NCBI GenBank assembly: GCA_965230995.1
Contig: OZ246398.1
Location: 144,227 to 208,226, forward strand
Length of the DNA stretch: 64,000 nucleotides
Direction: 5' to 3'
DNA from: an uncultured Candidatus Saccharibacteria bacterium
GTDB lineage: Bacteria; Patescibacteriota; Minisyncoccia; Phycocordibacterales; G965230995
A program made the translations under genes and the position numbers. This document shows, piece after piece, positions 4,199 to 60,199 of this stretch (the stretch's first letter is position 1; the number at the start of each line of letters is the position of its first letter). A model generated the notes under the pieces. It was not told the DNA's origin and searched no databases. It worked only from the letters and a program-made list of their open reading frames with translations.

Positions 4199-5458
4199 TT
4201 ATTTGAATTTGTTTAATCTATTAGAAGCTAAAAATTGTCCTATAAGGAGCTTGTTTGCGCCAGATATTCTTTTATCAGCCAAAGTTTTTCTCAGTATTTT
4301 TTCCAAAGCCTCTCGTGCACGATCTCCCTTTTCTGTGCCAATTACAGCATTTTCTGCTAAATACACTGATAATTCCTCCTGTATCTTTCCAATATTAGTT
4401 GTGCTTGTACCAATCTTTTCTACAACCGCACCAATTATGAGCTTGCTTGCTTTTTCGTTTATTTCATTTTTCAAAGCCTCTGCGTCAACGCCAAAATAAC
4501 CAGAGCCTTCCTCTGCTATGTTTTCTACTATTTTAGTTGCATTTGCCAAATCTTCTGGTTTTTTTGAACCTGCAATTAATTCTGAGACTTTTTCTCTAAT
4601 TGCCTTAGAAACCATATTAGAAACAGCGACCTCACCTGCAAAACCCGCTACAGCTTCCCTTTTAGCCTGTTTATAGATATCTCTCTGAGTTAATCTCTCG
4701 GCTTCGAGTCCTTGTATGCTTCTTATTCCTTCGACTTTCTTTTTTGTCTCTGCAATCTTTGCGTCTAGATCACCACGTTTTAGTCTGACACCCATTTCTT
4801 TTGCCTGAGCTCGAGCTTTTCTCTTTTCACCAAACAAAGTAAGTCTTCCTGCTCCGGTCCAGAAATTGAGGCTCTCTCTTGCTTTTTCTAGTATCTCTGC
4901 TTTCTTTTCGCCATCCTGTTTCTCGGCATCTATATCATCAGATATTCCCAATTCTGCTTTTTTGTCGGCAATCAATTTTTCACGAAGCAACATATCGGCT
5001 TTGTTGGTCGTCATCTTTTGGTATTCTGCAAGCATTTGCAACACTCTCTCTGGATTAGAATAGGCAAGACTAGTTATATATGTGTCTACTGAAGGCGACA
5101 CATCTGTGCTAGTAGGACCTGCTTTTTCTTGCATTTCACCCAAAACAAAAAATTTTACATTTTCTGCTAGCTCTTTTGTTTGTTTGAATAATTCAAAAAA
5201 TCTGTTTGTTTCTCTTATATCTTCAGCATCAAAATTGGTATCTGGGTTTGCTTGCAAAAAATCTGAAAAACCATCTGTATTAATTGCTGTATCGAATGTT
5301 TGTCTCTCTTCGTCTGATATTAATTCCAAAGCATTTCCAGTCTTATCTGGTACCGGCACAGACTCAGCCGGTGGAACTTGGTTTTGAATATGTTCTGGTC
5401 CAGTATCACCTTCATTTGGCACTCCATATGGAAATTCTTTTAGTGGTCCTTCACCCAT
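4199..5458 (-). CDS. hypothetical protein, no TM, predicted helical
   Basis: 419 aa ORF; first gene of operon; no recognisable catalytic motifs. Confidence 0.55.
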   Translation of the reverse strand: MGEGPLKEFPYGVPNEGDTGPEHIQNQVPPAESVPVPDKTGNALELISDEERQTFDTAINTDGFSDFLQANPDTNFDAEDIRETNRFFELFKQTKELAENVKFFVLGEMQEKAGPTSTDVSPSVDTYITSLAYSNPERVLQMLAEYQKMTTNKADMLLREKLIADKKAELGISDDIDAEKQDGEKKAEILEKARESLNFWTGAGRLTLFGEKRKARAQAKEMGVRLKRGDLDAKIAETKKKVEGIRSIQGLEAERLTQRDIYKQAKREAVAGFAGEVAVSNMVSKAIREKVSELIAGSKKPEDLANATKIVENIAEEGSGYFGVDAEALKNEINEKASKLIIGAVVEKIGTSTTNIGKIQEELSVYLAENAVIGTEKGDRAREALEKILRKTLADKRISGANKLLIGQFLASNRLNKFK

Positions 5459-7483: not shown

Positions 7484-7933
7484 ATGAATAGAGCATTCAC
7501 TTTAATTGAAATACTTGTTGTGATAGCAATCATCGCAATCCTTGCTGTGGTTGCAACTGTCGGATTTGCTAATACTCGTATTAATAAAACGATAGATATT
7601 ACGACTAAAAACATACTGTTTTCGCTCGAAGAAGCAAAAAGCAACTCCCTATCCGGAAAAGGCGGAACATCACACGGCATTTATTTTTCATCCAGCTCTT
7701 ACACAGTCTTCAGCGGGACTTCTTATGTAGAAAATAATCCTGACAACAAAATCACGACAATAGATTCTGCAATTGAAATCACAACAACAATTCCAAACGG
7801 CTATGTAATTTTCTCTAGACTAAATGGAAACGTAACAAACACAGGGACAATTACTGTGAGAGAAAAAGCTGACACATCCAATAGCAAAACAATTTCTATC
7901 GGCTCACTTGGTGATATCAATATGGTACAATAG
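7484..7933 (+). CDS. type IV pilus minor pilin (GspH/FimT-like), prepilin-type N-terminal methylation domain
   Basis: N-terminus MNRAFTLIEILVVIAIIAILA = prepilin cleavage/methylation motif. Confidence 0.7.
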   Translation: MNRAFTLIEILVVIAIIAILAVVATVGFANTRINKTIDITTKNILFSLEEAKSNSLSGKGGTSHGIYFSSSSYTVFSGTSYVENNPDNKITTIDSAIEITTTIPNGYVIFSRLNGNVTNTGTITVREKADTSNSKTISIGSLGDINMVQ

Positions 7934-7937
7934 ATAT

Positions 7938-8408
7938 ATGCGATCGAACGGATTTAGTATTATTGAAATAATAATATCCGCATCAATCATTATGGCGACA
8001 GTTGTTGCCACAATGACGGTTTTTGAATCATATCTAAAAATTGCTTTTAAAAGCTCTGAAAAAACATACAGCGCCCTACTTGCCGAAGAAGGAGCTGAAA
8101 TAATACAAGTTCTAAGAGACAACGGTTTCGGACAAAACATAGCACCTCTCGCTGTTTCTACTGCATACTATTTGTATTGGAATGGTACATCATTTGGAGC
8201 AACTACAACTCCGCAAATAATAAACGAGCAGTATCTACGAACAATTCAGTTCGAAAATATTTATCGTGATGCAAACAGCGATATTGCGGAAACAGGCACA
8301 CTCGATGAAAATACAAAGAAAGTTTCAATTACGGTATCCAAAACATCTGCAACAAACACTCCGATATTCTATACAGAAAGCTTAATTCACAATACATATG
8401 AAAATTAA
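7938..8408 (+). CDS. type IV pilus minor pilin (PilV-like)
   Basis: MRSNGFSIIEIIISASIIMA prepilin motif; start moved to internal Met. Confidence 0.65.
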   Translation: MRSNGFSIIEIIISASIIMATVVATMTVFESYLKIAFKSSEKTYSALLAEEGAEIIQVLRDNGFGQNIAPLAVSTAYYLYWNGTSFGATTTPQIINEQYLRTIQFENIYRDANSDIAETGTLDENTKKVSITVSKTSATNTPIFYTESLIHNTYEN

Positions 8409-8910: not shown

Positions 8911-10675
8911 AAAGAATACACAAGGCGGTTATGTTGTGATAATAAATACTTTGTTTTTCCTTGTCCTAACTGGATTGCTAACTTTTGGTGTTATCAAACC
9001 AACTATATCAAGTTTTAATTCTGCCAATGCATTTTCACATTCGAAACAATCTTTTCTTTTAGCAAACAGTGCTCTCGAAGAAGGCTTGTATCGATTAAAA
9101 AACAGTATTCCTATTTCTTCTTCGGAAAATATATCGCTCAATTCTCAAAATGCAACCATTGCTGTTTCTGACACAAATGACGGAAAAATATTATCTGTAA
9201 ACGCAGACGTTAATGATTTTCAAAGAGATTTGGAGGTTTCTATAATCCAAGGTGTCGGTGTAAGTTTTAATTATGGTTTACAAGCCGGCCAAGGAGGATT
9301 TGATTTGAGCGGTGGTGCCTACATAATTGGAAATGTCTACTCAAATGGTGATGTAACGGGCAGTGGTGGCCCATATATTACCGGATCTGCAACAGTTGCA
9401 AACGCAACAGACCCAAGCGCAATAATATCCCACATGGGAACTATCCCTCCTCCGTACGCAATTGGTTTTGCAGAAGATACTTGGCCAGCTAACGACGCTC
9501 GAGATTTTGCACAAAGCTTTACCTACCCAAGTGACACAACAATAAACAGTGTAAAGTTTTATATGAAGAAAACTGCGAATATTTCGATGGAAAATTTAAC
9601 TTTCTATATAACAAACAATTCTAACGGCTCACCAGGGAAAAATATTCTTGCAACAGGATTCCTCAGCGCATCACAAGTAACCACTTCTTATAATTATTTA
9701 ACAATTCAACTATCTAGCCCAGCCTCCATATCCGCTGGAACTACATACTGGATGGTTTTTACAAATGTAAAAAGAACCTGGGGTTCACAATATGTAATAG
9801 GGGCAAGCCAAAACACATATCCAGGAGGATTTGCAAAAACTGGGGCTTGGTCAAATTCAAACGGAGGAAATTGGTCTTCAACATCACCTGCTGGACTGGA
9901 TGCATATTTTGAAATATTTACAGGCGGTGACTCTGGTAGTATATCTGGAATGGCAATACACGGTGATGCTTGGGCTCATGAAATAAACAGCTCTAATATA
10001 TCTGGCTCTGCCTATTGTCAGGCATCAAACAGCAATAACAAACCTTGCGATTCAACGAGACCCGACCCAGCTACAGTAGCAATGCCAATATCTGATGGAA
10101 ATATAGAGGAATGGAAAGCCGCAGCAGAAGCTGGCGGTGTGATAACAGGTGATCTTTCATACGGAAGCCAGGACACAGAATATATTGGACCTAAAAAAAT
10201 TATCGGCAATCTAGATGTCGGAGCTGGAGCAACTCTTTATGTCACTGGCACACTATATGTAACTGGTAATGTTTCTGTATCAGGTGGAGGAAAAATTATG
10301 CTCTCGACCAGTTATGGAAACAATAGCGGAATAATAGTAACAGATGGAAAGATTTATGCCGGCGGAGGAGGATTCTTTGAGGGAAATGGTTTTACTGGAA
10401 GTTATATATTACTAGTCACGACAAGCACCTGCCCAACAAATTGTGGAAATAACGATTACGCTGTAGACATAAGTGGTGGGGCCGGTGCTGTAATCGTCAA
10501 TGCGCAAAAAGGAACAATTGTATTTACTGGAAGCGGACAGGCAAAACAAGCTACAGGTTACAGAATTGTTTTGAGTGGTGGAGCAAGTGTTCGCTACGAA
10601 ACTGGAATTGCGGATATGTCATTTAATAGCGGTCCATCGGGAACTTGGAATATCTCAAAATGGGACGAAAAATAA
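8903..10675 (+). CDS. large pilus-associated protein (PilX/PilY1-like tip or adhesin candidate) with Gly-rich repeats
   Basis: 590 aa, N-terminal hydrophobic pilin-like anchor (degenerate prepilin, no Glu5), Gly/Ser/Thr-rich repetitive C-terminal half; last gene of minor-pilin operon. Confidence 0.5.
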   Translation: MNKKNTQGGYVVIINTLFFLVLTGLLTFGVIKPTISSFNSANAFSHSKQSFLLANSALEEGLYRLKNSIPISSSENISLNSQNATIAVSDTNDGKILSVNADVNDFQRDLEVSIIQGVGVSFNYGLQAGQGGFDLSGGAYIIGNVYSNGDVTGSGGPYITGSATVANATDPSAIISHMGTIPPPYAIGFAEDTWPANDARDFAQSFTYPSDTTINSVKFYMKKTANISMENLTFYITNNSNGSPGKNILATGFLSASQVTTSYNYLTIQLSSPASISAGTTYWMVFTNVKRTWGSQYVIGASQNTYPGGFAKTGAWSNSNGGNWSSTSPAGLDAYFEIFTGGDSGSISGMAIHGDAWAHEINSSNISGSAYCQASNSNNKPCDSTRPDPATVAMPISDGNIEEWKAAAEAGGVITGDLSYGSQDTEYIGPKKIIGNLDVGAGATLYVTGTLYVTGNVSVSGGGKIMLSTSYGNNSGIIVTDGKIYAGGGGFFEGNGFTGSYILLVTTSTCPTNCGNNDYAVDISGGAGAVIVNAQKGTIVFTGSGQAKQATGYRIVLSGGASVRYETGIADMSFNSGPSGTWNISKWDEK

Positions 10676-10694
10676 AAGCCCCTTCGGGGCTTTT
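10674..10694. terminator. bidirectional terminator between convergent pilus operons
   Basis: aaaagcccc ttcg gggcttttatttttc. Confidence 0.6.
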
Positions 10695-10703
10695 ATTTTT
10701 CTT

Positions 10704-13694: not shown

Positions 13695-13732
13695 ATCATA
13701 AATATTATATCACAATACAAAATACAGACACA

Positions 13733-13765
13733 AAAAAACCGACACTTGCGTGTCGGTTTTTTTGT
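13733..13765. terminator. rho-independent terminator
   Basis: aaaaaaaccgacac ttgc gtgtcggtttttttg. Confidence 0.6.
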
Positions 13766-18260: not shown

Positions 18261-18785
18261 ATGAACTATTTACACGAAGTTGCTCCTGGAGAAGAAACAA
18301 AAATGAACGTTATCATCGAGATTCCTCGAGGTTCAAAAAACAAATACGAGATCGACAAAGAAACAGGACTCATTGCTCTCGACCGTGTATATCACACAAC
18401 ACAGGATATGCCTTTTGATTATGGTTTTGTGCCACAGACCCTTTGGGATGATGGTGACGCTCTTGATGTTATTGTTCTCACAACACATCCTTTGCACCCT
18501 GGAATCCTTGCAAGAGTAAGACCAGTTGGAATAATGGATATGATTGATTCTGGAGACTCTGATTCAAAGGTCATCGCAGTTCCAACAGACGATGCAAGAT
18601 GGGAAGATGTCAAAGACATTTCTGATGTAAACAAACACACAATAAAGGAAATGGAACACTATTTCTCTACTTACAAGAAAATCCAGAATAAAGTAGTAGA
18701 AGTAAAGGGTTTTGCAGGAAAAGACAAAGCAATAGAAGCCTTTAGACGATCAAGGGAAATGTACATACAGAAACATTCAAAATAA
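18261..18785 (+). CDS. ppa: inorganic pyrophosphatase (family I)
   Basis: NVIIEIPRGSKNKYEIDKETG and DGDALDVIVL motifs. Confidence 0.9.
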   Translation: MNYLHEVAPGEETKMNVIIEIPRGSKNKYEIDKETGLIALDRVYHTTQDMPFDYGFVPQTLWDDGDALDVIVLTTHPLHPGILARVRPVGIMDMIDSGDSDSKVIAVPTDDARWEDVKDISDVNKHTIKEMEHYFSTYKKIQNKVVEVKGFAGKDKAIEAFRRSREMYIQKHSK

Positions 18786-18788
18786 AAC

Positions 18789-18820
18789 AAAAACCGCCGA
18801 TAAATCGGCGGTTTTTGTTT
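18789..18820. terminator. rho-independent terminator
   Basis: aaaaccgccga taaa tcggcggtttttg. Confidence 0.6.
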
Positions 18821-18884
18821 TATCAAAAGATGATATAATTGATATGTAATAGAAACGACGCACATGCGTCTTAATAAAAACAAT

Positions 18885-26381: not shown

Positions 26382-26402
26382 TATTCCAACCACTATTTAA
26401 AA

Positions 26403-26430
26403 CAAAAAAACCGCGTTAGCGGTTTTTTTG
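26403..26430. terminator. bidirectional terminator
   Basis: aaaaaaaccgcg tta gcggtttttttg. Confidence 0.6.
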
Positions 26431-26436
26431 TTTTAG

Positions 26437-26540
26437 TGCGGGTGGGGAGAATCGACCCTCACAGGGTCAGTACCCCGATTGGATTTTTCTGTTCGTTTCA
26501 CTCCAGAAAAATGCTCAATCGGGCTTCGATTCTCCCACAC
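26437..26540. repeat. tRNA-linked repeat element copy 1: duplicated 3' end of tRNA-Gly + 62-nt conserved hairpin + inverted T-arm copy
   Basis: 26437-26455 repeats the last 19 nt of tRNA-Gly(TCC) (antisense on the plus strand); 26468-26529 is 62/62 identical to 28978-29039; 26521-26536 is an inverted near-copy of the tRNA-Gly T-arm. Confidence 0.6.
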
Positions 26541-26580
26541 AAGGTCTCCCAGACCTTGCTCATACCCGTATAGACATAAA

Positions 26581-26612
26581 CAAAAGCCGTCCAAGAAGAG
26601 GACGGCTTTTGT
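26581..26612 (-). terminator. terminator of tRNA-Gly(TCC)
   Basis: aaaagccgtcc aagaaga ggacggcttttgttt. Confidence 0.5.
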
Positions 26613-26620
26613 TTATGTTG

Positions 26621-26691
26621 TGCGGGTGGGGAGAATCGAACTCCCGTTTACACATTGGAAGTGTGTCATTCTACCACTAAACTACACCCGC
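26621..26691 (-). tRNA. tRNA-Gly (anticodon TCC)
   Basis: minus-strand gcgggtgtagtttagtggtagaatgacacacttccaatgtgtaaacgggagttcgattctccccacccgca; cloverleaf with acaca/tgtgt anticodon stem and loop cttccaa. Confidence 0.85.
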
Positions 26692-26735
26692 AGACTCAAA
26701 TAATATATCACAAAACTATATTTTGCCAAGCAGTT

Positions 26736-27050
26736 TTATTTATCTTTAATTGGCAATTTGCTCACTTTTATTACTTCACTAAAATCGTCTTTTTCAGAGA
26801 CACCGTTCTTTATTCGATAACCACATTTAATGCATTCGTGCAAAATTACATCTTTGCCTTTTTGTTTTAAAACTCCAATTGGTTTCATTGCTCCTTTGCA
26901 TGGCTCGAGTCTATCTCCCGGAAAAATATCGACATGCTTGCTCCACAAACATTTTGGACAATGATTAGTAAAACCATCACCAACAACGGATGTCTGACAT
27001 TGATCACAAATAAAATCTTCTTTTCTTTTTTGAAACTTTTTTACGTTCAT
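26736..27050 (-). CDS. RNHCP-domain zinc-ribbon protein
   Basis: CDQC...NHCPKC...HECIKCGY Cys clusters typical of the RNHCP domain; start taken at MNVKKF. Confidence 0.5.
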   Translation of the reverse strand: MNVKKFQKRKEDFICDQCQTSVVGDGFTNHCPKCLWSKHVDIFPGDRLEPCKGAMKPIGVLKQKGKDVILHECIKCGYRIKNGVSEKDDFSEVIKVSKLPIKDK

Positions 27051-27063
27051 TAGGTATGTGTAA

Positions 27064-28077
27064 TTAGAGAACTTTGACAATAACGTCCTTCAAATATCCA
27101 TTTTGAAAATTTGTTTTTTCTCCTATCTTTGCAACTCCATCCGAGACAAATCTTACAGAAAGAGGCTTGCTGTATTTATTACTAAGCTGTTGTATTAGTT
27201 TCAATATTTCAACTACCCTCTTTTTATCTTGATCAATTGCAATAGGATAAGTATCAATACCTAACCCTGAATGTAAACTCAAAAATATGTTTCTTTCAAT
27301 ACTAAAGTTTCCTTTTTCATATTCATCGGCTAATTCAAAATCTTCGAGACACGGAAACATAAGCCCGCAGAGGCCAACGGGGTTTGGGTTTTCACTCTTG
27401 ATAAATTTAGAAATAGTTGTATATGTATCTGTTGTAACAGAGTGATTAAAATCTAGCCCAATTCTTTTTATAAAATTAACTAAACTGCTTGAACCACTAA
27501 AAAGCGGAGCAATTGAAGAGTCTATTCCTAGATAACCATCTATATTTTTTAACAACAAATCAAGTTCTATCCAAACTTTTTTCATTTCCTCCAACCACTC
27601 ATTTAGATTTTTGCTTTCTTCTGATAAATCAGTCGGCTGTAAACCAACAGAAAAACCTTTCTGTTTAAATTTAGCAGATGGAAAATATGGACTTGAAAAT
27701 GGAGTATTGAATCCATAGGTAAAACGAAAAGTATTCTCAGGCTTTTTGTTTATAATTTTAAAAAGGACGTCAACATGTTTTTCAGAAATTTCCTCCTTTG
27801 TTAAATCAAGACTAATCGATTTGTTGTCAGATACTAAAAAGTCTGCAAGATTTTTATCTATCTTATCAAAACTTTGCTCTCCTAGGGACAACAAGATATT
27901 TTTATCTGTAAGCTCATTCTTATCAAAAACAGTATTGTATTCTGGCAGGCAAATTCTTCTAGTTTGTAAAGTAAAACCGTTATCTCTAAGGACACTGGAG
28001 ATCATCTCAATTTTTTTAATTTCATCTGGAGTAACCCTATCCGAGAAAAGACAAACTGTGCGAACTATTTTTTTCAT
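27064..28077 (-). CDS. hypothetical protein
   Basis: 337 aa soluble ORF; overlaps the RNHCP gene by a few codons, so probably co-transcribed. Confidence 0.5.
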   Translation of the reverse strand: MKKIVRTVCLFSDRVTPDEIKKIEMISSVLRDNGFTLQTRRICLPEYNTVFDKNELTDKNILLSLGEQSFDKIDKNLADFLVSDNKSISLDLTKEEISEKHVDVLFKIINKKPENTFRFTYGFNTPFSSPYFPSAKFKQKGFSVGLQPTDLSEESKNLNEWLEEMKKVWIELDLLLKNIDGYLGIDSSIAPLFSGSSSLVNFIKRIGLDFNHSVTTDTYTTISKFIKSENPNPVGLCGLMFPCLEDFELADEYEKGNFSIERNIFLSLHSGLGIDTYPIAIDQDKKRVVEILKLIQQLSNKYSKPLSVRFVSDGVAKIGEKTNFQNGYLKDVIVKVL

Positions 28078-28125
28078 ATTTAGTTGATTTAGTTATGAAT
28101 ACTTGAAGCAATATAAAACCACTAT

Positions 28126-28447
28126 TACTCACAGCTTAACACTTCCCTAATCATTTCCTCAAGTAACTCTTGATTATCTATAAGCTCGTCCGGAACCTGC
28201 CAATAGTTCATATGCACAGTCTTCCCATTAGACTTTTTATAATCGAATTTTCTCCAGCCAAGTGACGTGAGTTTTTTGCCACCTTTCCTTTTGCTTTTAA
28301 ATACAGTTGATTACCAATAATTGCCGAAAATGGAATTTTGTTCGAATAAATACACCAACCACTCATCATCGGCCTAGAAGAAATATCTGGGAGCCTGTTC
28401 ATGAGATCATAGACAATAAAATCGTGGTAGGAAGTGTCTTTTTTCAT
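28126..28447 (-). pseudogene. TfoX N-terminal-domain protein interrupted by a 1-nt frameshift in an A6/T6 homopolymer
   Basis: frame A gives ...PMMSGWCIYSNKIPFSAIIGNQLYLKAKGK; frame B continues ...KFDYKKSNGKTVHMNYWQVPDELIDNQELLEEMIREVL; together a full TfoX_N-like domain; junction at T6 run 28271-28276. Confidence 0.5.
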
Positions 28448-28453
28448 ACTAGA

Positions 28454-28915
28454 TTATTTTGATATATTCTTCTCCCATTCAGAAACAATTTCTAGCGAAG
28501 CATTTTCAAATTCTGGTATCTGAACAATTTCAATTTTTCTCAAAAAAGTATCTACCACATCAGAAGTCTTGTAATTTCCTCCATAATATTCTGCGGACAC
28601 TTTTTCTTTACCGCATGCATAAACTATTTTTGAAACACTTGCCCACATTGATGCTGTTAAACACATCATACATGGCTCGAGCGAAGAGTATATGATTGCC
28701 CCTTCCAAAATTTTACTATTAGTGTTTTTACACGCCCCACGTATTGCGTCTACCTCTCCATGGCTTGTTGGGTCGTGAATAATATTTCCAATACTTACAC
28801 CTTTTGAGATAATTTTCCCTTCTTTAACAATTATTGTTCCAGCAGGAAAACCTCCCTGGCTAACAGATTCTTTTGCTTGATTTATTGCCTGAATGAGAAA
28901 ATCTTTGTCATCCAT
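28454..28915 (-). CDS. CMP/dCMP-type nucleoside deaminase (TadA/guanine-deaminase-like)
   Basis: zinc motifs HGEVDAI and EPCMMC. Confidence 0.75.
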   Translation of the reverse strand: MDDKDFLIQAINQAKESVSQGGFPAGTIIVKEGKIISKGVSIGNIIHDPTSHGEVDAIRGACKNTNSKILEGAIIYSSLEPCMMCLTASMWASVSKIVYACGKEKVSAEYYGGNYKTSDVVDTFLRKIEIVQIPEFENASLEIVSEWEKNISK

Positions 28916-28930
28916 AACGAATGTTTTAAT

Positions 28931-29047
28931 CTAAAAGGAATTTTTGCCTTAGTGCCGGGATTCGAACATTACATGTTCAGTACCCCGATTGGATTTTTCT
29001 GTTCGTTTCACTCCAGAAAAATGCTCAATCGGGCTTCGAATCCCTGA
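28931..29047. repeat. tRNA-linked repeat element copy 2: duplicated 3' end of tRNA-Pro plus flank + 62-nt conserved hairpin + inverted T-arm copy
   Basis: 28931-28967 is a direct imperfect repeat of 29091-29127 (terminator flank plus last 16 nt of tRNA-Pro); 28978-29039 identical to copy 1; 29031-29046 is an inverted near-copy of the tRNA-Pro T-arm. Confidence 0.6.
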
Positions 29048-29105
29048 CAAACAGTATGTTTATACTGTTTGTCCACTCCTCCAAAATTTCCTAAAGGAAT
29101 TTTTG

Positions 29106-29178
29106 TCGGAGTGCCGGGATTCGAACCCGGAGTCGCTCGCTCCCAAAGCGAGAATGTTAGCCGTTACACCACACTCCG
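29106..29178 (-). tRNA. tRNA-Pro (anticodon TGG)
   Basis: minus-strand cggagtgtggtgtaacggctaacattctcgctttgggagcgagcgactccgggttcgaatcccggcactccga; anticodon loop tttggga. Confidence 0.8.
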
Positions 29179-29225
29179 ATATAACGTGGCTATCATAGCA
29201 TAAAAAAATGATATGTACACCCTCG

Positions 29226-29600
29226 CTAGGAATTAATAACGGGAATCATTTCTACTTTTGCTTTTTTCTGAACTGATGAGTATTTTACTGTCACAAGAAA
29301 TACTCCCCACTCCCCTTTTATGTTTCTTTGAGAAATATAAATATCTATTATCCTATAGAACTTTCGTAATTTATCACTATGCAAATTTTCTTCCGGTCTG
29401 AAACCAAAATCAGAATCAATATTTGTCCGAGAAACACTTTTTACCTCACAAAAATAGATTTTGCCATTTTTTTCAGCAACGATGTCTATTTCACCTAAAA
29501 AATGTCTAAAATTTCTTTCGATAATCTTAAAGCTATTCTTCTCTAAATATCTTCCAGCAATTTCCTCCCCTATTTTTCCAATTTCATTATGTCTGGCCAT
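29226..29600 (-). CDS. YraN-family (UPF0102) endonuclease
   Basis: 124 aa; GEIDIVA ... FCEVK motif typical of YraN. Confidence 0.75.
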   Translation of the reverse strand: MARHNEIGKIGEEIAGRYLEKNSFKIIERNFRHFLGEIDIVAEKNGKIYFCEVKSVSRTNIDSDFGFRPEENLHSDKLRKFYRIIDIYISQRNIKGEWGVFLVTVKYSSVQKKAKVEMIPVINS

Positions 29601-29661
29601 TTTTACTAATTATACGCCAAAAAGACACTTTTTGTCCTTGTTATACACACTATCCCCATAG

Positions 29662-29702
29662 TTATCCACAGTTTGGGGACAAAAGTCCTATATTATCCAC
29701 AC
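29662..29702 (+). promoter_or_regulatory. pair of perfect DnaA boxes (TTATCCACA x2, same orientation, 32 bp apart) in the yraN upstream region
   Basis: exact 9-mers at 29662-29670 and 29694-29702; a 2-mismatch variant tgttatacaca lies about 20 nt upstream. Confidence 0.45.
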
Positions 29703-29892
29703 CTTTGTCCAGTCTTTAATATAAAAAACAATACCTGTAACATCTTTTATGAGCCAAAATTAATATTGCCCGTTAGGTAAAGTAGTCTCTGGTGTTTATA
29801 AAAAAGTCTTTTGGCTTTTAATGCTCTACCTACAGCAAGTCTGAAAACAAAGAACCTCGATACACATTTGTGTCGAGGTTCTTTGTTTCTTG

Positions 29893-29963
29893 TGCGGATA
29901 GGGAGAATCGAACTCCCATCTGCCCCATGGCAAGGGGCCATTTTACCACTAAACTATATCCGC
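29893..29963 (-). tRNA. tRNA-Gly (anticodon GCC)
   Basis: minus-strand gcggatatagtttagtggtaaaatggccccttgccatggggcagatgggagttcgattctccctatccgca; strong hairpin terminator at 29850-29885. Confidence 0.85.
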
Positions 29964-30065
29964 GATTTGCCTAATTGTATATGAATGTTCATTAAAATCA
30001 AGTTTATCAATCTGTTCGTTGATTAATTGTAAAAATAATGTATTATTACGTCACATAGCCATAAT

Positions 30066-30140
30066 GCTCCCGTGGTGAAATGGATATCACATCGGTCTTC
30101 GGAACCGCTGTTCTGGGTTCGAGTCCTGGCGGGAGCACCA
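30066..30140 (+). tRNA. tRNA-Arg (anticodon TCG), CCA encoded
   Basis: gctcccgtggtgaaatggatatcacatcggtcttcggaaccgctgttctgggttcgagtcctggcgggagcacca; acceptor gctcccg/cgggagc; one U-C mismatch at the top of the anticodon stem. Confidence 0.65.
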
Positions 30141-30305
30141 GAAAGGAAATTGCAAGTCGGAGCTCGCCGCCTAAAACCACAAAAGAGCCCGGGGGAATAT
30201 CGGTGCGAACAATGTTTTGAATTGAGGGGGAAAAAAAATTTTTAATCCAATACGGAAACTCAGAAAAGACCCTAAAATATCGGCTTTTTTTGTTTGCCGC
30301 TTACA

Positions 30306-30334
30306 CTTGACTTCAAGGTATATATATGATATGC
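30306..30334 (+). promoter_or_regulatory. sigma70-like promoter for the GC-rich small ORF
   Basis: TTGACT - 17 nt - TATGCT. Confidence 0.45.
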
Positions 30335-30423
30335 TATTGGTGTCGTCGGAATTCCAAAAACCCGCTGACCTTGACGGTATCGTGCCGTCTAGAACATCAC
30401 ATCCCGAAGAAGGAGCGTTATTC

Positions 30424-30576
30424 ATGAAAAAAAATCTGGTGCTCGTCGGCAAGGCCGTCGCGCTCATCTGTTCGGTCGCGGGTCTGTATTTCACCGCGAT
30501 GGGGCAGCACGAGGCCTCATCGATCGCGTGGAACAGTGCCGCTATCGCACTATGGGCCGTTTCGTTCGCCGCGTAG
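30424..30576 (+). CDS. small two-helix membrane peptide (50 aa) in a ~60% GC islet
   Basis: RBS GAAGGAG 8 nt upstream; MKKNLVLVGKAVALICSVAGLYFTAMGQHEASSIAWNSAAIALWAVSFAA; composition sharply different from flanks. Confidence 0.4.
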   Translation: MKKNLVLVGKAVALICSVAGLYFTAMGQHEASSIAWNSAAIALWAVSFAA

Positions 30577-30655
30577 CGTCGCTCGTCACACGGCCCCATC
30601 ACCGCGCTATTCTCCGGAGTAGTGCGGCTTTTCTTTTTTATTTAGGATTAAAAAA

Positions 30656-31669
30656 TCATCTCTCCATTTTCTTTAGCAGTTCCAAATATAGGTCTTCTAC
30701 TATTTTTTTCTGCTCCTCCCCTGATTTTGCATAGTGATCTAATCCAGGAGAAGAATTAATCTCCAACACATAATATTCATTGGGTTTTTCTGTAATATCT
30801 CCATTTACCATAATATCTACACCGCAAATTCTGAGACCCATCCCCTTTGTAATATTAATCGCTATATCCTTGAAATCTTGGTTGATTTCACGTGTAACAT
30901 CGACGCTCTCCCCTCCTGTCGATAGATTTGCATTGTCCAAAAGAAAGACTTTCTCACCAGATCGCAAAACATCTGACATTTTTAAACCAAGTCTATTTAA
31001 TTTGTTTGATATTCTAATATCATTCAAATCAATAATATTTCCTTTGCCCTGCTTTTTAAAAAACTCCTTTTTATTCTTTACTAGGCTTTCTATATCAAAA
31101 ACACCATCTCCGATAACAGAAAAAGGTTCTCTGGTATAGGCGGAAATGACTTTGTCGTCGAGAACAACAATTCTGCAATCCACGCCAGAAACAACGCTTT
31201 GGACTAATATTATCCTGTCATATTGAAATATTTCCTCCCCTGCTTTGTAGAATTCGTCTTTATTCGAAACAAAAAACACACCCTTGCCCTGACTTCCACT
31301 ATTTGGCTTCACAATTACTGGAAATCCTATTGATTCTGCATATTTATAGGCATTATCTAATTTTCTATCATACACCCCTATTATTTCCGACCATTCGTCC
31401 GAGAAAAAAGTCTTGCTATTTGGGACAACAGGAAAACCAAGCTGTTTTAAAAAGAAATTTGTGTAATCTTTGTCGACAGCAATTTTTACCGAGCCCGCGT
31501 GGTTTAGATCAAAAGAATTATATTTAAAATATGAAAAAAGACCGCTTTTCCATTTTATTCTTCCGCAAACTCCCCACTCTGGTTCAATCAAAACCTCTGC
31601 CCCTATTTTGGAAGCAAGTTTTTTAATCAGATCTCGCGAAGTTAGTGGATAGTATTCTTTTTCGTTCAT
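30656..31669 (-). CDS. ATP-grasp domain protein (RimK/cyanophycin-synthetase-like ligase)
   Basis: ATP-grasp blocks FPVIVKPNSGSQGKGV and EINSSPGL; start ambiguous (MNEKEY chosen; the longer N-terminus is encoded by a palindromic motif). Confidence 0.6.
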   Translation of the reverse strand: MNEKEYYPLTSRDLIKKLASKIGAEVLIEPEWGVCGRIKWKSGLFSYFKYNSFDLNHAGSVKIAVDKDYTNFFLKQLGFPVVPNSKTFFSDEWSEIIGVYDRKLDNAYKYAESIGFPVIVKPNSGSQGKGVFFVSNKDEFYKAGEEIFQYDRIILVQSVVSGVDCRIVVLDDKVISAYTREPFSVIGDGVFDIESLVKNKKEFFKKQGKGNIIDLNDIRISNKLNRLGLKMSDVLRSGEKVFLLDNANLSTGGESVDVTREINQDFKDIAINITKGMGLRICGVDIMVNGDITEKPNEYYVLEINSSPGLDHYAKSGEEQKKIVEDLYLELLKKMER

Positions 31670-31742
31670 TTGCGTATTATACACATAATCAAAGAAAATG
31701 TTTCGCGTGTAACATTCCATAAAATGATATATAATTATCAAA

Positions 31743-33230
31743 ATGAAAAAAGCCTCAATTGACCCAAAAACCTTTAATATTCCGGAGGTTGTTTCGCGTG
31801 TAACATCTGTTTTACAAGATAATGGCTATGAAGCCTATATTGTCGGCGGTTGTGTTCGTGACCTTTTCCTTGGAAAAACGCCTAAAGATTGGGATATAAC
31901 AACAAATGCCACTCCTGAACAGATTATTTCCCTATATCCAGAAACATTTTACGAAAATTCTTTTGGAACGGTTGGTGTCGTGACAGAATCAGAAGAGCCT
32001 ACACTAAAGGTTATCGAAATAACCACATATCGAATAGAATCGGGCTACAGCGACAAAAGAAGACCTGACAATGTATCTTTTAGTGTAAACATACACGACG
32101 ACCTAATGAGACGCGATTTTACGATAAACGCAATGGCTTTTGATCCGAAGTCCGGGACTCTCATTGATTCCTTTGGCGGAATTGAAGATTTACACAAAAA
32201 ACAAATAAAAACAGTTGGAAATCCCGAGGATAGGTTCAACGAAGATGGTCTACGGATATTGCGTGCGATACGACTTAGCTCTGAACTTGGTTTTGATATC
32301 GAAGAAAAAACAGAAAAAGCCATAAAGGACAATTCTTCCCTACTCAATCATATTTCTGCAGAAAGAATCCGCGATGAATTCATAAAAGTCATTTCTTCAC
32401 AGAACGCTCTGCAAGGTATTGTAAACAGTCACAGATTAGGTGTTCTGTCCTTTATAATCCCAGAATTAGAAGAAGGAATTGGTGTGGAACAAACTGCTAC
32501 ACACGCTTATGATGTATGGACACACCTATTAAAAAGCCTAGAACATTCAATAAACAAAGAATATCCGTTACACGTGAAACTGGCTGCCTTGTTACACGAT
32601 ATAGGAAAGCCACGTTCAAGGAGATTTTCAACAGGTAAAGAAAAATATACCTTCTACGGTCACGAAGTTTCAGGGGCTAAAATAGCCAAAAGCATACTAG
32701 AAAGGCTTAAATTTCCAAAAGAAACGGTAGAAAAAGTAACAAAATTGGTTAGATGGCATATGTTTTTCTCGGATACCGAACAAATTACATTGTCTGCAGT
32801 AAGAAGAATGATAGTAAATGTAGGAAGTGATCTAGTCTGGGATTTAATGAACGTTAGAATATGTGACAGAATTGGAACAGGAAGACCAAAGGAAAACCCT
32901 TACAGATTAAGAAAATACAAAGCAATGGTTGAAGAAGCTCTACGAGACCCTATTTCTGTCCAGATGTTAAATATCGATGGTAAAAGGATTATGGATGTTA
33001 CACGTGAAAACCCTGGACCAAAGATTGGCTATATTTTAAATGCCCTACTTGAAGAGGTTTTGGACAATCCAACCCTAAATACAGCCGAATATCTAGAAAA
33101 AAGAACACTGGAGCTGTCAAAATTAGATGAAAAAGAGCTTAGAAAGATTTCAGATAAAGGAAAAGAAAAGAAAGACGAAGAAGAAAAGAAAGAACTAAAA
33201 AAGATTCACGCGAAACATAAAGTAGATTAG
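31743..33230 (+). CDS. cca: CCA-adding tRNA nucleotidyltransferase with C-terminal HD domain
   Basis: GGCVRDLFLGKTPKDWDITT Pol-beta NTase motif; HD domain LLHDIGK. Confidence 0.85.
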   Translation: MKKASIDPKTFNIPEVVSRVTSVLQDNGYEAYIVGGCVRDLFLGKTPKDWDITTNATPEQIISLYPETFYENSFGTVGVVTESEEPTLKVIEITTYRIESGYSDKRRPDNVSFSVNIHDDLMRRDFTINAMAFDPKSGTLIDSFGGIEDLHKKQIKTVGNPEDRFNEDGLRILRAIRLSSELGFDIEEKTEKAIKDNSSLLNHISAERIRDEFIKVISSQNALQGIVNSHRLGVLSFIIPELEEGIGVEQTATHAYDVWTHLLKSLEHSINKEYPLHVKLAALLHDIGKPRSRRFSTGKEKYTFYGHEVSGAKIAKSILERLKFPKETVEKVTKLVRWHMFFSDTEQITLSAVRRMIVNVGSDLVWDLMNVRICDRIGTGRPKENPYRLRKYKAMVEEALRDPISVQMLNIDGKRIMDVTRENPGPKIGYILNALLEEVLDNPTLNTAEYLEKRTLELSKLDEKELRKISDKGKEKKDEEEKKELKKIHAKHKVD

Positions 33231-33261
33231 TTACACGCGAAACATAGATAATACTACAAAA

Positions 33262-33292
33262 CACAAAAACGGCTTTATAAAGCCGTTTTTGT
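33262..33292. terminator. bidirectional terminator
   Basis: aaaaacggcttt ataa agccgtttttgtg. Confidence 0.55.
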
Positions 33293-33355
33293 GTTTTTGT
33301 TCCACGTGTAACACTGTATTTTGTTTCTTGTGAAACATTTTATTGTATAAAAAGG

Positions 33356-36088: not shown

Positions 36089-36985
36089 TTATCTTTTGTT
36101 GTGAAAGTTTTTGTGAACATCACGAAGATGTTTATCTGTAACGTGAGTATATATCTGTGTAGTGCCAATATTGGCATGGCCAAGCAGAGCTTGGACGGAA
36201 CGGAGATCGGCCCCGTTCGATAAAAGGTCGGTTGCAAAGGAGTGTCTGATTACATGTGGCGTCACTTTTTTTGTAATTCCTGCTTTGATTGCGTAATGTT
36301 TGATTATTCTCTGTACTGCTCTTGACACCAAACCAGAAACATCTTTGTCTTTTTTAAAGATCTGAACAAACAGAGGTTCTGCCATATCTTTTCTTACTTT
36401 TAAATATTTTTCAACTGCATCTTTTGCTTCGTCAGACACAAAGACTACTCGGACTTTTTCTCCTTTTCCACGTACTGATAATTCTTTTGCTTTTAGATTT
36501 ACATCACGTGAGAGAGAACACAATTCAGAGACTCGAAGGCCGGTTGAAAATAGCATCTCTAAAATTGCCCTGTCGCGAAGCGATCTTTCGCTATCACCTG
36601 TTGGAGCATTAAGAAGTCTGATTAATTCATCGTGGGTTATCAAATCAAGACTTCGCTCGGCAACTTTTGCGAGTTCTATCTTGTCTGGAGGTAGGGAAGT
36701 CACACCTCTTTTCATTGCATATTTAAGAAGCGATCTCAGAGCGATTAGATAATAATTCTGTGTTTTTCTCTTTAGAGTATCGTTGCCTTTGCCACTAGAC
36801 TGTCTATTTAACCACAATCTGAATTCTCTGATTGTTTCATCGGAAATATCCTTCGGATCTTTGATTTTTGTATGTTCGATAAAGCGAGAAATATACCTAT
36901 CGTAGTTTTCTACAGTTTTTAGACTGCGTCCTTTTTCAATTTCTACATATTCTAGAAACTGCCTCTTTAGGGTTTGCATATCCAT
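36089..36985 (-). CDS. xerC: tyrosine recombinase XerC/XerD family
   Basis: 298 aa; phage-integrase fold with R...HxxR...Y (HVIRHSFAT, GHANIGTTQIYTH). Confidence 0.8.
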   Translation of the reverse strand: MDMQTLKRQFLEYVEIEKGRSLKTVENYDRYISRFIEHTKIKDPKDISDETIREFRLWLNRQSSGKGNDTLKRKTQNYYLIALRSLLKYAMKRGVTSLPPDKIELAKVAERSLDLITHDELIRLLNAPTGDSERSLRDRAILEMLFSTGLRVSELCSLSRDVNLKAKELSVRGKGEKVRVVFVSDEAKDAVEKYLKVRKDMAEPLFVQIFKKDKDVSGLVSRAVQRIIKHYAIKAGITKKVTPHVIRHSFATDLLSNGADLRSVQALLGHANIGTTQIYTHVTDKHLRDVHKNFHNKR

Positions 36986-37441: not shown

Positions 37442-37972
37442 ATGGCAGTAATAAAACATAAAGAACAAAGAGTTGCAGTTTTTATAGATACACAAAATCT
37501 TTACCACACAGCAAAGCATCTTTACAAAGCTAAAGTTAATTTTGGTAAAGTAGTAGAAGACGCAGTGGGCGACAGAGCCCTCATTCGTGCGATTGCTTAT
37601 GTTATCACGACTGAATCTGGAGATGAGCAAGGTTTTTTTGAAGCACTAGAAAAATCAGGAATAGAAACAAAAACAAAGGATTTACAGGTTTTTGAAGGAG
37701 GTTCAAAAAAAGCCGATTGGGATGTCGGTCTTGCTGTTGACGCCATAAAAATGGCACCTAAATTGGATACCGTTATTTTAATTTCTGGAGACGGAGATTT
37801 TGCTCCGCTTGTACAATATTTACAAATAAATGAAGGTTGCCAGGTCGAAGTCGTATCATTTGGAAAATCTACATCTGGCAAATTGAGAGAAGTCGCCGAC
37901 GAATTTTTTGATCTTGATTTGACTCCTAAAAACTATTTGATTACGAACAACAAATTCTGGAATAGGGAATAA
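37442..37972 (+). CDS. NYN-domain (LabA-like) protein
   Basis: VAVFIDTQNLYH and ILISGDGDFAPLV motifs. Confidence 0.75.
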   Translation: MAVIKHKEQRVAVFIDTQNLYHTAKHLYKAKVNFGKVVEDAVGDRALIRAIAYVITTESGDEQGFFEALEKSGIETKTKDLQVFEGGSKKADWDVGLAVDAIKMAPKLDTVILISGDGDFAPLVQYLQINEGCQVEVVSFGKSTSGKLREVADEFFDLDLTPKNYLITNNKFWNRE

Positions 37973-60165: not shown

Positions 60166-60170
60166 TAAAA

Positions 60171-60198
60171 CAAAAAAACCGCTTTGGCGGTTTTTTTG
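60171..60198. terminator. bidirectional terminator
   Basis: aaaaaaaccgc tttg gcggtttttttg. Confidence 0.6.
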
Positions 60199-60199
60199 T

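Follow-up and report, generated by a model that had tools for sequence, protein, structure and literature searches.

Closest described systems

Phage CTX integrates as a single-stranded DNA hairpin and often forms tandem arrays; integration leaves a regenerated site, followed by the element, an inverted site and another site (PMC3442271). The DNA analysed here, a stretch of 64 kb referred to as the window, contains one gene-less, non-coding unit at each of two tRNA loci, 184 nt long at tRNA-Gly and 159 nt long at tRNA-Pro. These units and their relatives appear to be miniature site-specific mobile DNA of a kind not described before, the mode of movement of which we infer from its architecture. 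The units share with CTX-phi and other IMEX a stem that is built from a pair of inverted target-like sites and imitates the chromosomal site in its double-stranded form, and the likeness extends to the integrated order, the rod-like fold, a tandem pair of units and the presence of an Xer-type gene. IMEX target dif via XerC/D, whereas the targets here are tRNA T-loops and a gene end; the tRNA loci lie on the replication-origin side of the chromosome, with dnaA within the window. Moreover, IMEX measure kilobases, whereas the units span 95–184 nt and carry no genes, and the stem bears a large conserved side branch in place of the small unpaired overlap region of IMEX. A last difference is that the units are known as integrated DNA, with no single-stranded form observed.

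A second point of comparison is the integron attC site. Like attC sites, imperfect palindromes that are recognised in their folded single-stranded form, with structure counting rather than sequence, the units are palindromic and can be arrayed. Integron recombination takes place at a GTT triplet, and the repeats described here begin at G/TT of the T-loop (the slash marks the boundary). Integron cassettes can be very small. However, the R'/R'' consensus GTTRRRY/RYYYAAC is not matched, as GTTCGAA, GTTCAAT and G-TCGAT do not fit RRRY. Furthermore, there is no IntI: the recombinase encoded at 36089-36985 scores 134 bits on TIGR02249, for which the cutoff is 265. The units also differ in that they come without an attI platform and in that their arms are copies of the target gene.

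Two tRNA genes followed by units of the same design

At tRNA-Gly(TCC), the following features make up copy 1 and its surroundings (window positions, in tRNA orientation):

26620/26621-26691, minus strand: tRNA-Gly(TCC) (ARAGORN and Rfam, 73.8 bits)
26621-26639, minus strand: proximal repeat X, the final 19 nt of tRNA-Gly from T-loop to discriminator
26574-26618, minus strand: T1, a perfect 19-bp palindrome immediately past tRNA-Gly
26563-26569, minus strand: ACGGGTA, an imperfect inverted copy of the tRNA-Gly acceptor 3' strand that pairs with ACCCG of both X copies
26541-26557, minus strand: hairpin H, AAGGTCT-GGG-AGACCTT, 7 bp, unique in the window
26526-26539, minus strand: X', T-loop and T-stem 3' strand inverted, TGTGGGAGAATCGA
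26468-26525, minus strand: conserved core, copy 1 (block identical to copy 2: 26467-26527)
26455-26467, minus strand: tip hairpin ACCCT-GTG-AGGGT
26437-26455, minus strand: distal direct repeat X, TCGATTCTCCCCACCCGCA, 19/19 identical to the tRNA-Gly 3' end (26621-26639)
26398-26435, no strand: T2, a perfect 17-bp palindrome, an ordinary bidirectional terminator common to the convergent HU gene

The original prediction had listed a tRNA-Gly(TCC) followed by a terminator-style palindrome, a 7-bp hairpin, an inverted T-arm, a core and a 19-nt direct repeat, and all of these are located as given above. T1 is styled like the usual A-tract/T-tract terminators of this genome and, when the 184-nt unit is folded, closes the rod at its far end. 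A reading of T1 as a fold-back junction was dropped because T1 matches the style of the ordinary terminators. T2 is probably the native sequence downstream of tRNA-Gly. Many long perfect palindromes are tolerated by this genome. Hairpin H is confined to copy 1, where it splits the inverted arm at the boundary between acceptor and T-stem. The small tip hairpin and the inverted T-arm are the two halves of one target-derived palindrome, which is interrupted by the core; the tip hairpin forms its tip and differs from that of copy 2 in two pairs, both fully compensated.

Copy 2, at tRNA-Pro(TGG), follows the plan of copy 1 with sequences matched to tRNA-Pro:

29105/29106-29178, minus strand: tRNA-Pro(TGG) (ARAGORN and Rfam)
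29091-29126, minus strand: proximal repeat X of tRNA-Pro, comprising the T-loop, the tRNA end and then 15 nt downstream
29083-29103, minus strand: hairpin AAAATTCC-TTTA-GGAAATTTT
29047-29072, minus strand: hairpin H2, a perfect palindrome of 11-12 bp
29036-29046, minus strand: X' of copy 2, CAGGGATTCGA, tRNA-Pro T-loop and T-stem inverted, with 1 mismatch
28978-29035, minus strand: conserved core, copy 2 (identical block 28977-29037)
28965-28977, minus strand: tip hairpin AACAT-GTA-ATGTT
28931-28967, minus strand: distal direct repeat of copy 2, GTTCGAATCCCGGCACT-AAGG-CAAAAATTCCTTTTAG

In the rod of the 159-nt unit, the hairpin with the TTTA loop sits at the far end; it is missing past the distal repeat. 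H2 splits the inverted arm, with GGAGTG (29074-29079) on one side and CAGGGATTCGA on the other, and thus corresponds in relative position to H in copy 1. What had been taken for an inserted C in the inverted T-arm of copy 2 is a mismatch to tRNA-Pro. The direct repeat of tRNA-Pro is about 36 nt long (29091-29126 versus 28931-28967) and includes a 4-nt patch that reads CCGA in the tRNA and AAGG in the distal copy; beyond this patch, the inverted arm is complementary to the proximal copy only.

In the chromosome, the target is thus followed by the body, the inverted target that holds the core, the tip and a second target copy. Of the three parts of a unit, the first is a target copy that starts with the first T-loop base, and the second is the same stretch inverted, so that, paired with each other, they give a long duplex with the sequence of the target DNA. 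The third part, the branched core hairpin, is set in the inverted arm 4–5 nt before the GTR tip loop. The left repeat boundary coincides with the T-loop start at 3/3 filled sites (tRNA-Gly, tRNA-Pro and L009, a Kaiserbacteria contig described below). Downstream tail copies are present at 2/45 tRNA genes in the DNA examined, tRNA-Gly(TCC) and tRNA-Pro(TGG) only. A 57-nt core pattern occurs exactly twice in the 64-kb window (26468-26524 and 28978-29034, minus strand, 0 mismatches) and in 0/100 shuffles. The identity of the core next to tRNA-Pro, as claimed in the original prediction, holds at 100% over a block of 61 nt. Within these 64 kb, just two copies exist and each adjoins a tRNA, so that the core does not look like a repeat of the generic dispersed type.

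When a unit is read as a circle, it folds into an almost fully paired, branched rod, the stem of which reproduces the target duplex. The circular folds contain 70, 61 and 35 pairs for the 184-, 159- and 95-nt units, and G-U accounts for 1/166 pairs. With single-stranded DNA parameters, the two window units reach z = -11.7 and -12.1, and both strands of a unit fold about equally well; for RNA folding, z = -5.6. Assemblies break at the units, and contigs of this organism from metagenomes end inside the core. The units also create pseudo-tRNA 3' halves and extra hairpins that are able to mislead annotation.

Comparison with integration scars and small repeats

Islands that integrate into tRNA genes, and CIMEs, share with the units direct repeats of the tRNA 3' end that start in the T-loop (19 nt and about 36 nt here) and a supplied 3' end that keeps the gene intact. 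The T-loop is the classical crossover region of tRNA-targeting tyrosine integrases. Each unit might be the scar of a conventional island or prophage, with attL and attR joined by near-total deletion into a CIME-like remnant; the tRNA-Pro repeats run past the gene, as attP/attB homology often does. We consider this very unlikely. Between the repeats, there are only spurious antisense ORFs that have no protein relatives, and neither an integrase nor an integrase fragment. Independent deletions would not leave one 61-nt core at two tRNAs, and an inverted target copy enclosing a structured conserved core is foreign to ordinary att scars, as is the recurrence of the design where a protein gene ends. 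The homologous tandem units of 95 nt found in another CPR lineage, missing from syntenic relatives and endowed with covarying stems and an invariant loop (see below), likewise contradict the decayed scar of a large island that the original prediction had suggested.

The second suggestion made there, a miniature inverted-repeat element, does not hold in the sense of a classical MITE. Like MITEs, REPs, REPINs and PATEs, the units are small gene-less intergenic hairpin repeats that would rely on an enzyme acting in trans. However, MITEs are expected to share terminal inverted repeats and to be flanked by a 2–10 bp duplication, whereas the copies here share the core alone, the inverted repeats of each copy reproduce the target at its own locus, and the duplications measure 18–36 nt. 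In the 64 kb examined, the copy number (2) is very low.

Structure and relatives of the core

The core is a nested hairpin, as first described, with the layout AAG, 8-bp outer stem, internal loop, 9-bp inner stem, 12-nt loop GAGUGAAACGAA and GUACUG linker. The bases flanking the hairpin, (A)AG on the 5' side and RTAC on the 3' side, are conserved. A covariance model (R1) matches two copies in the Kaiserbacteria contig L009 (E 2e-12 and 1e-9) and one in a Saccharibacteria contig, L003 (E 2e-9). In the alignment, 94% of the cells are paired as opposed to 62% in shuffles; double changes are seen in 17/22 pairs, and one-sided changes of the G-U type number 0 in 177 paired cells. Double changes in the absence of one-sided ones fit pairing that is selected or templated in DNA. 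No variation is seen in the 12-nt loop. Written as CUGG-AGU-GA-AAC-GA-ACAG, the loop can presumably be read as a K-loop, the type of motif that L7Ae-family proteins bind, with a 3-nt bulge and tandem GA/GA.

The units fall outside the standard annotated feature classes, and no Rfam family covers them, in line with the original prediction: at the Rfam gathering threshold, four tRNAs and nothing else pass in the window region, relaxed thresholds add only terminator-type noise, and a scan of the homologous loci gave no match. The stop-free reading frames of the core, used as queries for spurious ORFs annotated over other copies, had no match in the protein database. An exact 28-mer scan of viral contigs found no match and an 18-mer scan one chance match within a phage ORF, and phage and plasmid collections, searched with the unit by blastn, contained none. 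Scans of genomes and metagenomes with the 18-mer of the loop gave at least 17 and 19 matches, approximately the chance expectation, and among those listed only L003, L009 and Balneolales-type loci are structurally related. Literature searches by topic and by loop sequence returned no description of such units. In Balneolales polysaccharide loci, the same hairpin and loop lie within a conserved non-coding unit of about 230 nt upstream of a NusG paralogue. This unit looks like a leader RNA, and the presence of the module in a leader-like RNA implies that the module may act as RNA.

The units might be structured RNAs that are co-transcribed with the upstream gene and work as a 3' trailer or small RNA, with mobility secondary or absent. 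A three-way junction of X'/X stem, core hairpin and tip hairpin, together with the acceptor-like end, would then mimic a tRNA minihelix, or the invariant loop would bind a conserved protein. Every CPR copy is co-oriented with its upstream gene and located before a terminator, promoters are predicted for both tRNAs, and no promoter-like site lies between tRNA and unit. The RNA folding score, the strong covariation with an invariant loop, the possible K-loop and the Balneolales leader-like unit are also in favour. Nevertheless, this reading is unlikely to be the primary explanation: G-U pairs and one-sided changes are practically missing from the stems, the antisense strand folds equally well, and the arms are perfect copies of neighbouring DNA, which goes beyond mere complementarity. 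The units are, moreover, insertions, tandemly repeated in one case, behind genes as unrelated as tRNAs, a 104-aa protein gene and ftsZ, which argues against a gene-specific function. At tRNA-Gly, a strong terminator-type palindrome separates the tRNA from the unit, and the tRNA would unfold if X' paired with it. A function as RNA is nonetheless compatible with mobility.

Three further assignments were dropped. Hammerhead, hairpin and other ribozymes and group II domain V/VI do not fit the junction strands, and Rfam is silent on them. Guide RNAs of the H/ACA or C/D type are not bacterial, and there is no pairing between the tip arm and the real tRNA. For a second, degenerate tRNA with an insert in the T-loop, the pieces that resemble acceptor and T-stem read equally well as the inverted 3' end; a protein gene, moreover, carries the same design.

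Units in other lineages and unfilled sites

In L009, two tandem 95-nt units directly follow the stop codon of a protein gene. The order of the 104-aa gene, a flavodoxin-like gene and YchF is kept in three Kaiserbacteria relatives (L052, L053 and L054), which have spacers of 62–123 nt and no core. The L009 spacer is about 190 nt longer, which equals two 95-nt units. With gene order maintained in relatives that have no units, the units are insertions. The target in L009, GGTTCAATTC / GGTTTGATTC, is T-loop-like despite lying in a protein gene. The inverted arm pairs 12/12 with the proximal copy, and the distal copy has 3 differences in this stretch. The distal copy keeps G-L-I-R-R-stop in frame, with TAG changed to TGA, as expected of a displaced native gene end. 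On the other hand, the proximal copy is closer to the orthologues than the distal one, which also fits the opposite model, i.e., a native proximal copy and a distal copy that is a sloppy duplicate. A type III antitoxin repeat was considered for L009 and dropped, as no toxin gene follows.

In L003, the core and GTA-tipped palindromes copied from ftsZ are located after this gene; the core has no surrounding stem and the locus no T-loop-like target. The insertion-like unit bounded by repeats of the tRNA 3' end, as originally predicted, therefore stands, whereas targeting of tRNA genes alone does not, given the protein-gene end in L009 and the position after ftsZ in L003. For the window loci themselves, no circle, excision junction or empty allele was seen. 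The closest DUF711 homologues among the matches listed are about 72% identical and not syntenic with the window.

The order X, X', X is also that of an inverted triplication. It might stem from template switching of replication forks at hairpins, a process that would produce direct, inverted and direct target copies with no dedicated machinery, and the core would either provoke or mark such events. The arms are perfect Watson–Crick copies, the clustered multi-base differences (the two compensated pairs of the tip hairpin and the CCGA/AAGG patch) look templated, and the genome's tolerance of long palindromes would be permissive. We give this explanation only a slim chance because it leaves unaccounted for the identical core at two loci, the homologous core and 12-nt loop in other phyla, the constant T-loop breakpoint and the fixed distance of 4–5 nt between core and GTR tip at three sites.

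Proposed integration as a folded single strand

It is quite possible, if still short of probable, that the units are a non-autonomous element that integrates at T-loop-like sites as a folded single strand. We infer a single-stranded intermediate, the involvement of a recombinase and the direction of exchange from the anatomy of the filled sites. A transient, folded single-stranded circle would present a stem that mimics the double-stranded target. Strand exchange with the T-loop-like sequence GG/TTYRAWTC would take place at the T-stem/T-loop boundary, the unit would provide the interrupted gene with a new 3' end, and the native 3' end would be shifted downstream. In favour of this model are the identical cores with different target-matched flanks, the branched rod, the covariation of the DNA type, the insertion of a tandem pair in L009, the constant T-loop boundary, the weaker pairing of the inverted arm with the distal copy than with the proximal one and the CTX-like order. 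The enzyme would be supplied in trans. A Xer-type tyrosine recombinase gene 7 kb away (36089-36985) is a candidate by its presence; it looks like the housekeeping type, and this counts against the model.

Other observations are at odds with this mode of integration. It fits no more than three filled sites, and two copies were examined in this genome. The lack of any observed circle, excision junction or empty allele at the window loci, the deviating L003 locus, the closeness of the L009 proximal copy to the orthologues and the hairpin module in the leader-like Balneolales unit weigh on the same side. Left of the T-loop, the stem comprises just 5 bp, a short length for the half-site of a tyrosine recombinase, and the fact that 100% identical cores stand beside arms matching two different tRNAs stays unexplained. 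Under the model, the empty tRNA-Pro site would be tRNA-Pro directly joined to AAGGCAAAAATT... or its CCGA form. A displaced native end predicts CACTCCGA at the distal tRNA-Pro copy, and CACTAAGG is observed, so that an extra event is needed. Our guess is a clustered change that created complementarity to the downstream CCTTTTAG.

Movement by an HUH single-strand nuclease, as in PATEs derived from IS200/IS605 or in REP/RAYT systems, would assign the core the role of recognition structure, with TCGA/TTGA and GTAC as cleavage contexts. An imperfect conserved hairpin with conserved flanking bases, left flanks that read TCGA, TCGA and TTGA at three sites, pairing that appears to be maintained at the DNA level with no G-U, and GTAG/CTAC around the L009 loop are consistent with this route. 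We nevertheless give it only a slim chance. PATE/RAYT families do not duplicate their target, in contrast to the repeats of 18–36 nt, and depend on a pair of conserved subterminal hairpins, whereas the units have a single conserved one. A Pfam scan of 38 ORFs with 150 aa or more, out of 59 listed, revealed no Y1_Tnp or other HUH transposase, and the target-derived palindrome is not accounted for.

More doubtful than the basic model of folded single-strand integration is a fuller version of it. Here, the units would be minimal gene-less CPR cassettes (95–184 nt) that integrate as single strands at tRNA T-loops and look-alikes. The hairpin copy of the target would serve as attachment site and the core would recruit the recombination machinery. 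The arms could be re-templated, so that one core might serve different tRNAs.

Implications

The invariant 12-nt loop common to the CPR units and the leader-like Balneolales RNA points to a conserved binding partner. If the model of folded single-strand integration holds, the units would rank with the smallest known site-specific integrative elements, and they would provide the first folded single-stranded attachment sites aimed at tRNA genes, as opposed to dif or integron platforms. The combination of a constant structured core with target-copying arms would raise the question of how an element that carries no genes changes its target specificity. The units would then also offer a handle on the recombination enzymes of CPR bacteria, in which mobile DNA is almost unexplored.

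Architecture of the Two tRNA Loci

The window is low in GC (about 37%) and carries genes for ClpP, RNase Y, HU, YraN, the CCA-adding enzyme and DnaA. The closest relatives of its DUF711 protein belong to Parcubacteria/Patescibacteria, which places the source among CPR bacteria. ARAGORN and Rfam agree on four tRNAs, two of which are followed by the units discussed here:

26621-26691, minus strand, tRNA-Gly(TCC), ARAGORN and Rfam
29106-29178, minus strand, tRNA-Pro(TGG), ARAGORN and Rfam

In tRNA orientation, both loci share one layout: first the tRNA, then a hairpin region, next an inverted copy of the T-loop and T-stem of the adjoining tRNA (X'), the core, a 5-bp hairpin with the loop GTG or GTA, and finally a direct repeat (X) that covers the tRNA from T-loop to 3' end. 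X measures 19 nt at tRNA-Gly (copy 1) and about 36 nt at tRNA-Pro (copy 2), including a differing 4-nt patch. A 57-nt core pattern is found at 26468-26524 and 28978-29034 and nowhere else in the window, and shuffled sequence never yields it; the block identical between the two copies spans 61 nt. The layout given in the original prediction is therefore accurate. Among 45 tRNAs in all fetched DNA, tRNA-Gly(TCC) and tRNA-Pro(TGG) are the only ones with downstream tail copies. Contigs that match the window at 100% identity in public read assemblies (Logan, SRR14271374 and SRR14271372) end inside the cores, and thus the repeat breaks assemblies of this organism. The contigs that start and end within the two cores are:

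26500-29004, Logan assembly contig
29010-33287, Logan assembly contig

A weak similarity links tRNA-Gly(TCC) to the 3' half of the core (26655-26620 against 26500-26455, minus strand). The resembling pieces are the D-loop AGTGGTAGAA and the anticodon loop TTCCAAT on the tRNA side and AGTGAAACGAA ... TCCAAT in the core; this may be chance, or part of the core may derive from tRNA-Gly. Separately, the minimum of cumulative GC skew falls near 31 kb (about 30000-32000), and genes diverge in orientation there as well (31741/31743); dnaA, yidC and jag are found 30 kb from this point, at 60-63 kb (62126-63472).

Fold of the Units

Identity between the copies ends directly after GTACTGA, which marks the small hairpin as the variable, target-linked part. 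Two pairs of its arms differ between the copies and both changes are fully compensated. X' together with the 5' arm of the small hairpin is the reverse complement of the 3' arm together with X. The target-derived sequence is a single long palindrome whose 5' arm houses the core at a distance of 4-5 nt from the GTR tip. Upstream, the inverted copy goes on to include acceptor-strand sequence (ACGGGTA in copy 1, GGAGTG in copy 2) and is split at the acceptor/T-stem boundary by a second perfect, copy-specific hairpin. Folded as circles, the 184-nt and 159-nt stretches between the direct repeats form almost fully paired branched rods of 70 and 61 pairs, with a G-U total of 1 and z-scores with DNA parameters of -11.7 and -12.1, respectively. 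The two strands fold about equally well.

About 15 long perfect palindromes (12-19 bp) of one style (A-tract, GC clamp, loop, T-tract) stand at gene ends in the window, two of them sharing the identical arm TAAAACAAAAAAACCGC. Examples are:

10667-10701, terminator-style palindrome
13730-13765, terminator-style palindrome
18782-18823, terminator-style palindrome
26398-26435, terminator-style palindrome
33258-33297, terminator-style palindrome
60168-60201, terminator-style palindrome

These appear to be the bidirectional terminators of this genome. The 19-bp palindrome after tRNA-Gly has this ordinary style and hence was not counted as evidence of duplication.

Relatives of the Core

An exact-word scan of collections with the 18-nt apical stem-loop of the core returned as many matches as chance predicts. 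The word lies inside the same type of hairpin in three groups: a contig of a Saccharibacteria MAG (L003), contig JBLIMJ010000012.1 (L009), and Rhodohalobacter/hypersaline contigs. L009 is labelled as an Acidimicrobiales MAG; its composition and a 104-aa protein family are those of Candidatus Kaiserbacteria (CPR), and the contig is probably mis-binned. A covariance model built from the two window copies alone matches L009 twice (E 2e-12 and 1e-9), L003 once (E 2e-9) and the Rhodohalobacter group weakly (E 0.003-0.05); about 170 kb of DNA from related Parcubacteria and Kaiserbacteria gave no match. In the resulting alignment, which was fitted to the model so that its pairing figures are inflated, 94% of cells are paired, against 62% in shuffles and 27-53% with slid partners, and 17 of 22 pairs show double-sided changes; one-sided, G-U-type changes occur in none. 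Double changes are plain in the raw sequences as well (CCCGATTG/CAATCGGG vs CTTTAG/CTAAAG vs ACCTTG/CAAGGT). Conservation extends to the 12-nt loop GAGTGAAACGAA, to the GTR tip and to the bases flanking the hairpin, (A)AG on its 5' side and RTAC on its 3' side.

In L003 the core is accompanied by two GTA-tipped palindromes and by an inverted stretch copied from ftsZ, which lies upstream; no stem surrounds the core, and there is no T-loop-like target. These parts belong to a chain of perfect hairpins downstream of ftsZ (7690-7950), in which 7751-7767 is the inverted copy of 17 nt within the ftsZ coding end (7697-7713). The chain also includes an inverted pair of 15 nt (7878-7892/7930-7944); the locus sequence stops at 8000, which truncates the structure.

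In Rhodohalobacter and hypersaline metagenome contigs, a conserved multi-hairpin non-coding unit of ~230 nt, several per locus, holds the two-part hairpin and 12-nt loop of the window core, with a compensatory swap of CUG/CAG to CAG/CUG:

L007/L015, L028, L031, L033 and L034 (e.g., L034 8298-8315, about 4550, and 375-392), minus strand, ~230-nt unit

It has no Rfam match. Its setting, ahead of a NusG paralogue in Balneolales clusters for polysaccharide biosynthesis (Wzz/tyrosine kinase, SLBB, GT2), suggests a leader RNA not yet described.

The 18-nt loop word also occurs, outside the family hairpin, in a Marinimicrobia contig (L011), about 110 nt after the first of two tRNA-like sequences and near a partial T-loop copy:

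246-298 and 4346-4398, L011, tRNA-like sequences, 5'-truncated, positions 8-63 of the Rfam tRNA model

ARAGORN calls no tRNA at either. Ahead of each lies a nearly identical stretch of about 100 nt, and the roughly 4.1 kb enclosed by the two looks like an island with att-type repeats; L035 carries the same sequence.

The strongest rival reading is that the units function as RNA, which is compatible with mobility. The invariant loop, the co-orientation of the units with the upstream gene, the lack of a promoter-like site ahead of them and the presence of the same hairpin and loop in the leader-like Balneolales unit all suit it. Upkeep of the stems at the RNA level is opposed by the complete absence of G-U pairs, the equal folding of both strands, arms that are perfect copies of adjoining DNA, and unrelated upstream genes.

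A Filled Site in a Protein Gene

L009 carries two 95-nt units in tandem, immediately behind the stop codon of a gene for a 104-aa protein whose family always ends in ...NG(S/T)IR(R/N/Q)*. Three relatives share the order of 104-aa gene, flavodoxin-like gene and YchF, with spacers of 62-123 nt that have no core, as compared to 256 nt in L009. These syntenic relatives represent empty sites. The plan in L009 is that of the window copies: GGTTCAATTCGTAGATAG as the native end, then a loop of 4 nt, CTACGAATTGAA as the inverted copy, the core, and AACCT-GTA-AGGTT continuing into a direct copy of the gene end. A diverged copy GGTTTGATTCGGAGATGAG and the native terminator follow the second unit. Despite its location in a protein gene, the repeated sequence is T-loop-like (GGTTCAATTC), and in each of the three filled sites the start of the repeat corresponds to the T-stem/T-loop boundary. 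The left breakpoint is thus constant; the right end of homology varies (19, 36 and 18 nt). Internal copies in L009 are all alike and only the last differs, keeping frame and stop position (TAG to TGA, CGT to CGG). We consider it likely that the unit is inserted, at least formerly mobile, DNA.

Comparison With Known Systems

Rfam 15 contains no match for the unit; phage and plasmid collections gave none either, and literature searches by topic and by loop sequence found nothing on such units. By analogy, the units seem to work most like CTX-type IMEX elements, which exploit Xer, or integron cassettes, whose logic is related to CTX single-strand integration. They belong to neither class: CTX-type elements target dif, which the units do not, and the units lack attC core sites and IntI. 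With tRNA-integrating islands they share T-loop repeats but have no integrase. The scar of a large tRNA-targeting island, in line with the attL/attR scars originally proposed, accounts for part of the data, as do an accident of template switching and a hairpin mobilised by HUH enzymes; the conserved core, the constant breakpoint or the long duplications speak against every one of them. The other initial reading, a miniature inverted-repeat element, does not hold in the usual sense of MITEs, because the inverted repeats copy the target instead of forming the element ends.

A Possible Route of Integration

CTX phage integrates through a hairpin that mimics dif, formed by its two inverted dif-like sites, with exchange of one strand pair (PMC3442271). 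The resulting prophage, often in tandem, has a regenerated site at one end and the inverted sites at the other (PMC3442271). We propose integration of the unit as a folded single strand, which accounts for the arrangement of parts (target, body, inverted target, tip and target again), the rod fold, the tandem pair, and a left breakpoint that stays constant while the right end varies. On this view the element would supply the proximal copy, beginning at the T-loop, and the distal copy would be the displaced native end. Three details fit this reading. Complementarity of the inverted arm is better with the proximal copy than with the distal one. In L009 the internal copies are alike and the last diverges, and the frame and stop retained in that last copy are as expected of a once-functional gene end. 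The window encodes a Xer-type enzyme:

36089-36985, minus strand, Xer-type tyrosine recombinase, 298 aa, passing the XerA/archaeal-type NCBIfam cutoff and below the XerC, XerD and IntI cutoffs

It looks like the housekeeping enzyme, and nothing ties it to the units. An NYN-domain protein adjoins it (37442-37972).

Several points speak against this route. The distal tRNA-Pro copy reads CACTAAGG, where a displaced native end is expected as CACTCCGA; we can only suggest a later clustered change, AAGG making CTAAGG complementary to CCTTTTAG just downstream. The proximal L009 copy is nearer to orthologues than the distal copy, which also suits a model with a native proximal copy, and L003, with neither the stem nor a T-loop-like target, does not fit. 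The contigs of this organism in public read assemblies showed no free circle, excision junction or empty allele of the window loci. Most importantly, the window units have identical cores and arms matched to different tRNAs, and such re-templating of the arms lies outside every step of the model. We are much less confident in this specific mechanism than in insertion, and the explanation as a whole is tentative, falling somewhat short of probable.

The finding is real and more structured than first described. The sample is very small and the mechanism is one that we infer; the architecture is unusual and lends itself to testing. A handful of CPR genomes are so far known to carry the units, for which the best description is small non-autonomous integrative DNA of a new variety, having a branched conserved hairpin and arms that copy the target.
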